A stretch of DNA of 64,000 nucleotides from Terriglobia bacterium (GTDB lineage: Bacteria; Acidobacteriota; Terriglobia; Acidiferrales; UBA7541): assembly GCA_963819015.1 (NCBI GenBank), contig CAWFUN010000007.1, positions 677,741 to 741,740 on the forward strand, read 5' to 3'. The notes under the pieces are model-generated. The model saw only the letters and a program-made list of their open reading frames with translations. It was not told the DNA's origin and ran no database searches. Made by a program: the position numbers and the translations under genes. Positions 15,480 through 37,221 of the stretch are shown piece by piece (the first letter of the stretch is position 1; each line of letters begins with the position of its first letter).

Positions 15480-15596
15480 GCGACGTGCCCTCCTGCGATT
15501 GCCGCCCCTGAACGGCCGGCAGATGACAGGCGATTGGGCGCAAGCGAGTCGCGCGGGGCCGCGCGAGCGCGACTGAATCGCGGGTGACTCTAGTTG

Positions 15597-15670
15597 TGGG
15601 CCCGCCAGGACTCGAACCTGGGACCAACGGATTATGAGTCCGCCGCTCTAACCGGCTGAGCTACGGGCCC
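15597..15670 (-). tRNA. tRNA-Met (anticodon CAT)
   Basis: Reverse complement folds as a cloverleaf: acceptor GGGCCCG/CGGGCCC, D-arm GCTCAGCCGGTTAGAGC, anticodon arm GCGGA-CTCATAA-TCCGT (CAT), T-arm CCAGGTTCGAGTCCTGG, discriminator A. CCA is not encoded. Confidence 0.85.
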
Positions 15671-33011: not shown

Positions 33012-33089
33012 GACAGGCACCTCACTTCGCGCTGCCCGCATCCTGCGCGTTTGCCGCTCTGCGTGTCAAGTTGGCGCAAGCCGCCCCGC

Positions 33090-34823
33090 ATGGACGCTCG
33101 CGCGCACGCGCCATATACTCGTCGCGTGAGCGCCTCTCCGGATCTTCACGCATTGCTCCGCCGTTACTGGGGCTACCATGAATTTCGTCCGTTGCAGGAG
33201 AGGATCGTCCGCAGTCTGCTCGGCGGCCACGACGTCTGCGTCGTGATGCCAACCGGCGGCGGCAAATCGCTCTGCTACCAATTGCCCGCCGCGACGCTCT
33301 CCGCGCAAACCGTGGTCGTGCTCTCGCCATTGATCGCGCTGATGCAGGATCAAGTCGCGCAACTCACTCAGGTCGGCATCCCCGCCGCATTCCTTAACAG
33401 CACGCTCTCGGAACACGAGCAGTCCACCCTAATCCGCCGCGCCCGCGCGGGAAGCTATCGCCTCCTTTATCTCTCTCCCGAGCGCCTCGCCCGCCAGGAC
33501 ACCATCGAATGGCTCCGCCAAGTCCCCGTCTCGCTTTTCGCCATTGACGAGGCGCACTGCATTTCCGAGTGGGGCCACGAATTCCGCCCGGAGTACCGCA
33601 AGCTGGCCAGCCTGCGAGAGCATTTTCCCAATTGCCCCATCGCGGCCTTCACCGCCAGCGCCACGCGCCACGTCCGACACGACATCATCGAGCAGCTCCG
33701 CCTACGCGATCCCGATAAGTACATCGCCAGCTTTCATCGCCCCAATCTGCGTTATGTAGTGAAGGAGTGCGACGCACGCACGCAGGGCACTCTGCTCGTG
33801 CGCGCCTTGCGGGCGCACACCACCGGCAGCGTTATCGTCTATGCGCCGACGATCGCGCGCGTCGCGCAAACCGTTGCCTTGCTCGAAGCAGCAGGAATCC
33901 CCGCCATCCCCTACCACGGGAGAATGGACGCCCGCGAGCGCCGCGACAATCAGGAGCGCTGGATGTCCAACGAAGCGCGCGTCCTGGTCGGCACGATCGC
34001 ATTCGGTTTGGGCATCAATAAGGCCGCCGTGCGCGCCGTCATCCATCTCTCGCTGCCGAAATCCATCGAACAGTATTATCAAGAGGCCGGGCGTGCCGGA
34101 CGCGACGGCCAGCCCGCCGATTGCATCCTCCTGTGGCAAAAATTCGACGTGGGCCTGCTCACGCATTTCATCCAGCAAATTGAAGACCCCGAGGAAAAAG
34201 AGCGCGCATGGAAGCGTTACCACGCCATCCGCCACTTCGTGGATACGCCCGTCTGCCGTCATCGCCAGATCTGTCTCCACTTCGGCGAAATTCGCAAAGA
34301 GCATTCCTGCAACGCCTGCGACGTCTGTGGCTGCGGCCTAGAATGGCTCGATGAGCCCGTAATCGCCGCACGCGCAAAGCGCAAACGCAGGCGCACGAAA
34401 GCGCCCTATACGCCGCAAGCGCCCGCGACGAAAGCAAGAAAAACTCCCGGTCAACTCCTGGGACGCCCTCGTCAGGGCACGGCTTCAGCAGTGCCGAAAA
34501 GCCTCAAGACCTCAGGGGTTTTAACCCCTGAGGCCAGCGCAATGGACGGTCGCACTTCTGTTGAGACGCGTCCTGGCAGCACCGCCGCCGTGGTTCCCCC
34601 ATCCGATCTCTTTGAAGCCCTCCGCCAATGGCGCCAAAAAGCCGCCAGAGAACAGAATGTCCCAGCCTTCGTCGTAATGCACGATACGACTCTGGAAGAG
34701 ATTTGCCGCACGCGCCCCCGCACGCTGGCCGAACTGTACGAAGTCCACGGCATCGGCGAACGAAAGTTGGAAATGTACGGCAAGCAAATCCTGGACACTT
34801 TGAAGAACTCCTTGCCTTCGTAG
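33090..34823 (+). CDS. recQ: ATP-dependent DNA helicase RecQ
   Basis: YWGYHEFRPLQERIV, PTGGGKSLCYQLPA, DEAHCISEWGHEFRPEY, the zinc-binding CRH..CNAC.DVC cluster and a C-terminal HRDC domain. Start chosen at the MDARAH ATG; an alternative is at 33051. Confidence 0.9.
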   Translation: MDARAHAPYTRRVSASPDLHALLRRYWGYHEFRPLQERIVRSLLGGHDVCVVMPTGGGKSLCYQLPAATLSAQTVVVLSPLIALMQDQVAQLTQVGIPAAFLNSTLSEHEQSTLIRRARAGSYRLLYLSPERLARQDTIEWLRQVPVSLFAIDEAHCISEWGHEFRPEYRKLASLREHFPNCPIAAFTASATRHVRHDIIEQLRLRDPDKYIASFHRPNLRYVVKECDARTQGTLLVRALRAHTTGSVIVYAPTIARVAQTVALLEAAGIPAIPYHGRMDARERRDNQERWMSNEARVLVGTIAFGLGINKAAVRAVIHLSLPKSIEQYYQEAGRAGRDGQPADCILLWQKFDVGLLTHFIQQIEDPEEKERAWKRYHAIRHFVDTPVCRHRQICLHFGEIRKEHSCNACDVCGCGLEWLDEPVIAARAKRKRRRTKAPYTPQAPATKARKTPGQLLGRPRQGTASAVPKSLKTSGVLTPEASAMDGRTSVETRPGSTAAVVPPSDLFEALRQWRQKAAREQNVPAFVVMHDTTLEEICRTRPRTLAELYEVHGIGERKLEMYGKQILDTLKNSLPS

Positions 34824-35006
34824 TGGCGAGCGATTTCCGCGAGTTCCGCTCAACACGGGCCGCAAGCCAATCGTCCGATTCTTTGCTTGCTTCCCTGCCT
34901 CCTTGCATCCTTGCCTCTGCCCAGCCCGCCACTCGCCACTCATCACCGGCCACTCCCCCGTGGGTCCACACGCATGCCCCGGACAGTGCTCGCTTGGTGG
35001 TAGAAT

Positions 35007-35747
35007 TTGCCCGCCTTGGCTAAATCTGCGACCAAATCAGACTTTCGTCTGCTCGCTGAGTTTCGGAAGCTTTTCGAAGGGCGACTGTACAAACACCGCG
35101 CTTCGAATCAGGGCGACTACGTCGCTATGCAACTTTACGAGGACCTTTTCACTATCGATAGATCTCCCAAGCTGGTCAAGGAAATTAAGGGCGGAATTCT
35201 GGTATTGAACGTAGCGAATAAGCTTCAGGGCATCCGGGCGAGGCGCGGAGACGGGACCCTGGGAGAGATCGTTCCGGGAGAAACACCAATCCGAGACGCA
35301 GGTTACGCCGTCGCGCGGGGCAAGATCGCAACGGTGGTAATTGGCGTGGAGGTAAAAATCCTCGCCAAGGCAATGATCAAACAGATAGACAGGGTTACCA
35401 ACGATCTCCGCAATCAGGTGGTCCAATTTCGAAGGGGCGGTGGTCAGCCGTTCTGCGTCGGAATTGTTGGAATAAATCAAGCCGACCACTACGTCAGCTT
35501 CGAAGGTGACAGGCCTTGGCCTACAACGGGGAAAGGCGGCTATCTACATCCCATCCAAGAGGCAGCGGAAGCAGAGCGGAGGCTGCTCGAGCTAGCTGCT
35601 CCCGCATACAGCGAGTTTCTTGTGCTTCGCTACAAAGCAACCAACGAGAAACCGTGTCCTTTTCAATGGGTGGATTTTGGCGAAACACGCCTGAACTATG
35701 CAGCAGTCCTGACCCGAATCAGCAGTGGCTTCCAGCAAAGATCGTAG
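35007..35747 (+). CDS. putative Type II restriction endonuclease (PD-(D/E)xK fold), family not recognised
   Basis: 246 aa with no family match I can name. Candidate catalytic motif D(AGYAVARGKIATVVIG)VEVK (D...ExK). Convergent with, and ending 6 nt from, a beta-class DNA MTase. Lower GC than its flanks. Confidence 0.5.
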   Translation: MPALAKSATKSDFRLLAEFRKLFEGRLYKHRASNQGDYVAMQLYEDLFTIDRSPKLVKEIKGGILVLNVANKLQGIRARRGDGTLGEIVPGETPIRDAGYAVARGKIATVVIGVEVKILAKAMIKQIDRVTNDLRNQVVQFRRGGGQPFCVGIVGINQADHYVSFEGDRPWPTTGKGGYLHPIQEAAEAERRLLELAAPAYSEFLVLRYKATNEKPCPFQWVDFGETRLNYAAVLTRISSGFQQRS

Positions 35748-35752
35748 GAACC

Positions 35753-36763
35753 TCAGCCGGCGGCGAAGCGCACGGTCGCCGTGGTAAAAAGCGACGAAGT
35801 ATCTTCTGCAATTCGTTTGCGGGCGAGTTTGAAGTAATGCTCGTCAATCTCGTAACCGATGCTGTTCCGACCCCATTTCGCAGCCGCGACGGTCGTCGTT
35901 CCCGTGCCCAGGAATGGGTCAAGCACCGTGTCACCGACGAAGCTGAACATGCGAATCAGTCTCTCAGCGAGCTCCGTCGGAAATGGCGCAGGGTGATGCT
36001 TCGTCGAAGCGCCCGTCAGACCGTTCCAGATTTGCTGGAACCATTTCTTGTGATTTTCCGCCGAAATCAAACTTAGAATTTTCGTCGGAATGTCGGGAGC
36101 GCGATACCCGCCCGGTTTGCGCTCCATCAGGATAAACTCGATGTCGTTCTTGATCACCGCGTTCGGCTCGTAGGGTTTGCCGAGAAATCCCGAGCCGCCT
36201 TCCACCTCATAGGCCGCATTGGCGATCTTGTGCCAGATAATCGGCGCGAGATTGTCGAATCCAATTTTCCGGCAATGCTCTTGGATGGACGCATGCAGCG
36301 GAACAACCGTGTGTCGACCTCCGTTCTCTCTGCGTGAGAGACACACGTCCCCCACCACGCAAATCAAACGCCCGCCCGGGACCAGGGCTCCGAAACTGTG
36401 CTTCCAGACTTTGTCTAGTTCATGAAGGAATTGGTCGTAATCCTCAATGTGACCAAGCTGCGAGTCGTTGTCCCTGTACTCCTTCAGCGTCCAATAAGGC
36501 GGCGACGTCAATATGAGATGCACGCTCCCGGGCTCGACGCTCTCCATCTCGCGCGCATCGCCCAAATGCAGTTCGTGTCTTGTGGGAATCGATTGGACGG
36601 CCCGCTCAATCCGCCGCACCGACTGTTCGTCCTTCGCCAGCCGCGGAATATCCTCCTGCGCGTCGCCCAGTTCTCGCAGCTCAGTCGGAACAAATGAAGA
36701 CAGGTCAGCAATCGTCGTTTCCGGCGAATCATCAATCGGCTTGCGCTTCGCGGCTACATGCAT
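35753..36763 (-). CDS. DNA methyltransferase, beta-class (N4-cytosine/N6-adenine); SPPY catalytic motif precedes the FxGxGTT SAM motif
   Basis: 336 aa; LILTSPPYW (motif IV) near the N-terminus and DPFLGTGTTTVAA (motif I) near the C-terminus, a circularly permuted beta-class order. SPPY is typical of N4C MTases (inference). Confidence 0.85.
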   Translation of the reverse strand: MHVAAKRKPIDDSPETTIADLSSFVPTELRELGDAQEDIPRLAKDEQSVRRIERAVQSIPTRHELHLGDAREMESVEPGSVHLILTSPPYWTLKEYRDNDSQLGHIEDYDQFLHELDKVWKHSFGALVPGGRLICVVGDVCLSRRENGGRHTVVPLHASIQEHCRKIGFDNLAPIIWHKIANAAYEVEGGSGFLGKPYEPNAVIKNDIEFILMERKPGGYRAPDIPTKILSLISAENHKKWFQQIWNGLTGASTKHHPAPFPTELAERLIRMFSFVGDTVLDPFLGTGTTTVAAAKWGRNSIGYEIDEHYFKLARKRIAEDTSSLFTTATVRFAAG

Positions 36764-36996: not shown

Positions 36997-37221
36997 GTGT
37001 GTTATAAGCATCGCTCCATGCTTCGTCCGGTGGGGGAACTTCAAACGGCAATCCAGGAAAGCCCGGGCGAGGCTGGGTCCCGGCATTCTGAGGCAGCGCG
37101 CCCCGCGGAACGGCACGCATCGAGCTTCTGCCCGGCGTGCTCGGCGCAGCTCGAACCGCACCGCTGCAAACTGGTATGCTCCCGGTGCGGGTACTATATG
37201 TCCTGTTCGGACTACATTTGA
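36997..37221 (+). CDS. possible small zinc-ribbon protein
   Basis: 74-aa ORF (or 67 aa from MLRPVGEL) ending CPACSAQLEPHRCKLVCSRCGYYMSCSDYI (CxxC...CxxC). No RBS seen; weak support. Confidence 0.25.
   Translation: MCYKHRSMLRPVGELQTAIQESPGEAGSRHSEAARPAERHASSFCPACSAQLEPHRCKLVCSRCGYYMSCSDYI

Follow-up and report, generated by a model that had tools for sequence, protein, structure and literature searches.

A probable Type II restriction-modification module in an Acidobacteriota-like chromosome, with a predicted PD-(D/E)xK endonuclease from a family without a database name

The window analysed here, a 64,000-nt stretch of a Terriglobia bacterium genome (assembly GCA_963819015.1, contig CAWFUN010000007.1, positions 677,741 to 741,740), carries two convergent genes between recQ and a small Cys-rich open reading frame (ORF)/STAS gene, and this text concerns their assignment as a restriction-modification (R-M) system. 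The candidate restriction endonuclease gene, R, lies on the forward strand at 35016..35747 and would encode 243 amino acids (aa) from a TTG codon. The second gene, M, lies on the reverse strand at 35753..36763 and encodes a predicted beta-class DNA amino-methyltransferase (MTase) of 336 aa from an ATG codon. An earlier note, made from the letters of the window alone, had described a compact convergent pair of an MTase gene and a small ORF, and both ORFs were found at the positions that it gave. The stop codon of R is TAG (35745-35747) and that of M is TGA (complement of 35753-35755), and between them lies a spacer of 5 nt, GAACC, at 35748..35752. The convergence reported in the note was therefore correct, but its spacing of 6 nt was the end-to-start difference of the coordinates and not the number of nucleotides between the stops. 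No terminator-like hairpin was found between the stop codons of R and M in the 5-nt spacer.

The ORF of 246 aa named in the note is the mechanical one, which opens with a TTG at 35007 (35007..35747), and residue numbers of R follow this 246-aa frame throughout. L091, a near-identical metagenomic relative, has CTG in place of the TTG at 35007 but keeps the one at 35016, and the homologues of R are mostly 243-244 aa long. R therefore probably starts at the TTG at 35016 and yields a product of 243 aa. A -10-like hexamer, TAGAAT, is located at 35000..35005 on the forward strand, 10 nt 5′ of the probable start, and is also present in L091; a consensus promoter scan did not call it. The hexamer may perhaps be the R promoter and give a very short leader, and one may speculate about a near-leaderless R transcript combined with convergent transcription over the 5-nt gap.

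The product of M (METHYLTRANSFERASE) matched Pfam PF01555 (N6_N4_Mtase) with an E value of 2.6e-38 and 132.6 bits, the gathering cut-off being 26.7, and it also matched several PADLOC models of Type II MTases at about 1e-61 (MTase_II, E 3.4e-61). The catalytic motif IV of amino-MTases, SPPY, was found at aa 87-90 (36494..36505, reverse strand), and the S-adenosylmethionine-binding loop of motif I, FLGTGTT, at aa 284-290 (35894..35914, reverse strand). Because motif IV precedes motif I, the order of the motifs is that of the beta class, and M is by its sequence a beta-class N6/N4 DNA amino-methyltransferase, as the earlier note had read from SPPY standing before an FxGxGTT motif. The closest relative with a solved structure was TTHA0409 of Thermus thermophilus HB8 (PDB 2ZIE), which aligned over aa 63-322 with 367.6 bits and an E value of 6.3e-109. 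In published work TTHA0409 is a dimer and is classed as a 'putative' N4-cytosine MTase of the beta class, and no recognition site for it was found in the literature mentioning it. The best NCBIfam matches of M were sub-threshold and were to adenine MTase models. From SPPY and from the label given to TTHA0409, N4-methylcytosine is a plausible product of M.

When R was searched against Pfam, NCBIfam, PADLOC and PHROGs, no significant match was returned, and neither a single-sequence nor a profile search against PDB sequences found any. The small ORF is thus as unclassified as had been claimed. Homologues were nevertheless plentiful, with about 3,640 at E ≤ 1e-3 that fell into 482 cluster representatives at 50% identity. 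Relatives were present in 341 species genomes, mostly Bryobacterales or Terriglobia within the Acidobacteriota, and the others came from Chloroflexota, Planctomycetota, Myxococcota, Dormibacterota and Eremiobacterota-like metagenome-assembled genomes. A look-up in public sources returned no phage matches to the family. Compared to L091, the ratio of nonsynonymous to synonymous substitution rates (dN/dS) was 0.07 for R and 0.09 for M, which shows strong purifying selection on both genes, and both are intact. The 3,640 homologues together with the dN/dS of 0.07 argue that R is a real gene and not a chance ORF in high-GC DNA.

Two structural models of R were considered. The first, built from close homologues, reached a predicted local distance difference test score (pLDDT) of 79 and pointed to restriction enzymes. 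The second, an AF2 model of the 243-aa protein from a deeper alignment, in which 53 sequences with as little as 32% identity were used, reached a pLDDT of 93.4 and a predicted template modelling score of 0.90. Its elements follow in the order helix 32-47, strands 62-65, 80-85 and 109-116, helix 120-139, strand 146-154, helix 179-193 and strand 200-208, forming an alpha-beta-beta-beta-alpha-beta core followed by a beta-alpha-beta crossover. R is, according to this model, a protein of the restriction-endonuclease-like PD-(D/E)xK fold.

The predicted active site agreed with this fold. The 'PD' aspartate, D82, stands in an RRGDG string just before strand beta-2 (codon at 35250..35252, forward strand) and was invariant in alignment A1 and at least 90% conserved in the diverse alignment A2. 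The (D/E)xK motif, E115-V-K117, is located in strand beta-3 (109-116 of the model; codons at 35349..35357, forward strand), and E115 and K117 were invariant in alignments A1, A2 and A4. These residues are placed as is canonical for the PD-(D/E)xK core, in which the Asp opens strand 2 and the (D/E)xK motif is part of strand 3. Among 34 members that were 32-50% identical to the window protein, D46, E115, K117, N157 and N213 were invariant, and E45, R79, R80, D82 and Q126 were at least 90% conserved. The D...(E)VK motif proposed in the earlier note is accordingly present and conserved across these distant members, and R, which carries an acidic/Lys triad, matched no non-nuclease family. In PD-(D/E)xK nucleases the usual layout is E...(P)D...(D/E)xK, and E45 and D46 in helix alpha-1 (codons at 35139..35144, forward strand) are from this layout candidate auxiliary metal-binding residues. 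A conserved helix follows the catalytic strand (helix 120-139 of the model), and its residues K121, K125, Q126, D128 and R129 (35367..35393, forward strand) were invariant or nearly so in A1. We infer that this helix is a candidate DNA-recognition helix.

The pairing of R and M was surveyed with tblastn, using both window proteins against 87 loci that had been fetched through R homologues. An orthologue of M, with 51-79% identity, directly adjoined the R homologue in 84 of the 87 loci, and the three loci without one were at contig ends. The two genes were co-directional, with M before R, in 66 of these loci and convergent as in the window in the other 18, and the genes beyond the pair varied from locus to locus. 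Pairing in more than 80 loci and in two gene orders shows that the association is near-obligate. The earlier note's designation of R as a PD-ExK endonuclease was supported by the restriction-endonuclease-like predicted structure and by this adjoining MTase. The identities to the window proteins were discordant between R and M at some loci, for example 82% for R and 62% for M in L008, and 62% for R and 79% for M in L052, and the gene order, convergent or co-directional, also varied between subgroups. This suggests that R and M genes have been recombined or exchanged between related modules, which would be tolerable only with a shared specificity.

The composition of the pair set it apart from its surroundings. 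The GC content was 0.540 for R and 0.567 for M, compared to 0.621 for recQ, a difference already remarked on in the earlier note, and 0.597 for the whole window. At third codon positions the GC content was 0.59 for R and 0.67 for M, compared to 0.73-0.80 for the neighbours. Since both measures lie below those of the neighbouring genes, the pair fits a foreign origin and horizontal acquisition. The constant two-gene unit, found in two orientations and in shifting contexts across phyla, looks like a mobile R-M module. One M→R copy was carried by plasmid pPT65 of Paraburkholderia terrae. On pPT65 a DUF262 protein and a HEPN-like nuclease of the MAE_28990/MAE_18760 family are encoded directly downstream of the pair (L088:5773-7582; NZ_AP025261.1 22236-24045) and a site-specific integrase upstream of it, and the plasmid has type IV secretion genes; together, the genes around the pair are a small defence islet. 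In the window, direct or inverted repeats that an integration might have left on either side of the pair were sought, with only short, chance-level matches. An empty-site comparison for insertion could not be used, because the sole syntenic relative found, L091, already has the pair and the other RecQ loci have different neighbours.

Orthologues of M were also found with other partners. They are conserved across many Thermus species, and in Thermus oshimai JL-2 (CP003249.1) a 228-aa ORF (L172:4877-5563, forward strand) begins 3 nt after the gene of an MTase that has 80% identity to TTHA0409. This ORF had no match in Pfam, NCBIfam or PDB and no similarity to the window R, so a pairing of the Thermus MTase orthologue with an R homologue was rejected for T. 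oshimai JL-2. The 228-aa ORF contains a WD...SLK string reminiscent of PD-SxK, and it may represent a second uncharacterised restriction endonuclease family with the same MTase lineage. On plasmid CP132293.1 of Haloferacaceae archaeon XH8, an MTase that is 52% identical and shares the N-terminal extension is encoded at L171:2465-3487 (forward strand) downstream of a 320-aa HNH protein (L171:969-1931, forward strand) with three HNH_repeat units, a C2H2 finger and an HNH nuclease domain. The M lineage is thus paired with at least three unrelated candidate nucleases, and partner switching is common among R-M systems. Because the lineage has several unrelated nuclease partners, the small protein of the window is better understood as a nuclease partner than as an MTase subunit.

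Taken together, the pair is best read as a horizontally acquired two-gene Type II R-M module in an Acidobacteriota-like chromosome, with R as a PD-(D/E)xK endonuclease, and we give this reading a probability of roughly 85%. The separate, adjacent and co-inherited genes for an MTase and an endonuclease that mark a Type II system were found in 84 of the 87 loci. In the mechanism that we infer, M would probably act as a dimer, like TTHA0409, with S-adenosylmethionine as methyl donor, and would modify a short and probably palindromic host site on both strands, probably forming N4-methylcytosine and protecting the site. R would be an Mg2+-dependent PD-(D/E)xK endonuclease, probably a homodimer, of an EcoRI/NgoMIV-like branch, with D82, E115 and K117 in the active site assisted by E45 and D46, and the helix with K121...K125-Q126...D128-R129 would read the bases. 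Like a classical Type IIP enzyme, it would cut the same site when unmethylated, for example in incoming phage or plasmid DNA. Some observations weigh against this reading. The searches of PDB sequences gave R no sequence-level link to any characterised restriction endonuclease, and the source names of its homologues were all 'hypothetical protein'. In addition, neither a control (C) protein nor an obvious regulatory element that would delay R expression after transfer was found with the pair.

R could instead be a defence nuclease outside restriction, whether NucC-like, signal-activated or of another sort such as an abortive-infection effector, that travels with the MTase without being governed by its methylation. 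NucC is a protein of the restriction-endonuclease fold, and its structural match to R therefore does not separate this explanation from restriction. Neither NucC nor any defence model of PADLOC resembled R in sequence, there were no cyclase, CRISPR or CARF genes in the neighbourhoods examined, and the sole constant neighbour, in 84 of 87 loci and in two orientations, was the MTase. We consider this explanation very unlikely, and a NucC-type nuclease activated by cyclic oligonucleotides was rejected because R lacked a PADLOC, Pfam or PDB sequence match and was neighboured by MTases and not by CD-NTase or type III CRISPR genes.

The persistence of the M family in many Thermus species beside housekeeping genes shows that M can be kept in the long term, and this, together with the absence of a regulatory C protein, would suit a decaying or domesticated R-M remnant in which M is active, perhaps in an epigenetic role, and R is inactive in this genome. 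However, R is full length with all conserved catalytic residues, and the purifying selection on it relative to L091 is as strong as that on M (dN/dS 0.07 vs 0.09), which makes a remnant similarly improbable. Slightly less credible still is that R is a non-nuclease DNA-binding accessory of M, for example a subunit for specificity or regulation whose PD-(D/E)xK scaffold has degenerated: cleavage by R is predicted from the genes and the model, and proteins of this fold have in some cases been turned to DNA binding, but the acidic and Lys catalytic residues are conserved family-wide, which is unexpected for a non-catalytic scaffold, and M orthologues with quite different partners, the 228-aa ORF in Thermus and the HNH endonuclease on the haloarchaeal plasmid, show that M does not need the R protein.

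Clues to the target of the proposed Type II module were sought in the avoidance of 6-mer palindromes. In 646 kb of host loci the most avoided palindromes were CAGCTG, with an observed/expected ratio (O/E) of 0.27, and CTCGAG, with an O/E of 0.49. In 424 kb of related control contigs picked through RecQ (L092-L138) the O/E of CAGCTG was also 0.49, and hosts and controls differ in taxonomy. The Paraburkholderia plasmid with the pair avoided CTCGAG (0.42) but barely CAGCTG (0.70), and Thermus DNA, with the orthologous MTase, avoided neither. The avoidance signal is therefore confounded by the controls, the taxonomy, the plasmid and Thermus, and CAGCTG and CTCGAG are kept as a lead only. A separate palindrome, CTATAG, was nearly absent (O/E 0.16) from the same 424 kb of control contigs. 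These had been chosen without regard to this R-M system, and the scarcity of both CAGCTG and CTATAG in them suggests that other systems cause sites to be avoided widely in the Acidobacteriota-like group.

The surroundings of the pair were compared with L091. The identity was 85% for RecQ (window 33051-34823 vs L091:1623-3290), 93% for the Band-7 protein, 97% for R and M and 98% for the STAS protein, and the divergence from L091 was thus uneven along the locus. Between the MTase and the STAS gene, a 74-aa ORF at 36997-37221 on the forward strand has a C-terminal CPAC...CSRC motif resembling a zinc ribbon; it is 89% identical in L091, has no Pfam match and has an uncertain start codon. As for RNA genes, the window yielded a single one, a tRNA-Met (CAT) at 15596-15670 on the reverse strand (Rfam RF00005, 74.4 bits), which is unrelated to the pair.

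Most predicted Type II restriction enzymes, a highly diverse group, have never been characterised. The pair adds to a known kind of Type II R-M system and leaves the understanding of R-M unchanged. Its interest lies in R, which represents a nuclease family with good support, a clear catalytic motif and a structural model of high confidence; no database names this family, and Acidobacteriota of soil and peat carry it widely. The practical benefit would be modest. A Pfam or PADLOC model for this family is missing and would improve the annotation of defence systems, and the enzyme could become a new reagent if its specificity is new. The pair would also be a predictable barrier to the transformation of Acidobacteria, which are hard to manipulate genetically.

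A comparison with known proteins began, for M, with TTHA0409 (M.TthA0409; PDB 2ZIE/2ZIF/2ZIG). The SPPYWTLK string and the region between the motifs, presumed to recognise the target, both lie within the alignment, the xPFxGTGTT motif reads DPFLGTGTT in the window M and DPFAGTGTT in TTHA0409, and motif IV precedes motif I in both. In contrast to TTHA0409, the window M has about 40 extra N-terminal residues. For R, no sequence similarity could be detected to BbvCI or to the 'CCGG-family' enzymes NgoMIV, Cfr10I, Bse634I, SgrAI, AgeI, PspGI and PfoI. Restriction endonucleases of the CCGG family recognise bases with a conserved R-(D/E)-R motif, which lies on a helix shortly behind the catalytic Lys. 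In R the positions K117+4 to +7 are K121-A-M-I, and the only D-R pair, D128-R129, is at +11/+12. Since the R-(D/E)-R motif is not in the expected register, membership of the CCGG family (NgoMIV/Cfr10I/Bse634I/EcoRII-C/PspGI) was rejected. Cfr10I and NgoMIV have SxK with a relocated Glu, whereas the R family keeps the canonical ExK glutamate, E115. Structurally, R was nearest to NucC, the effector nuclease of CBASS and type III CRISPR (PDB 6P7P, 7ZGV), but with only 11% identity in the structural alignment. A bolder idea, which we regard as unlikely, is that R founds an uncharacterised Type IIP restriction endonuclease family with a recognition sequence absent from the enzyme catalogue and, being structurally nearest to NucC, is a candidate for the free-standing endonuclease lineage from which NucC effectors were recruited. 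The genetic setting distinguishes the two proteins, as NucC is found in a cyclase or CRISPR context, whereas the constant partner of R is a DNA methyltransferase.
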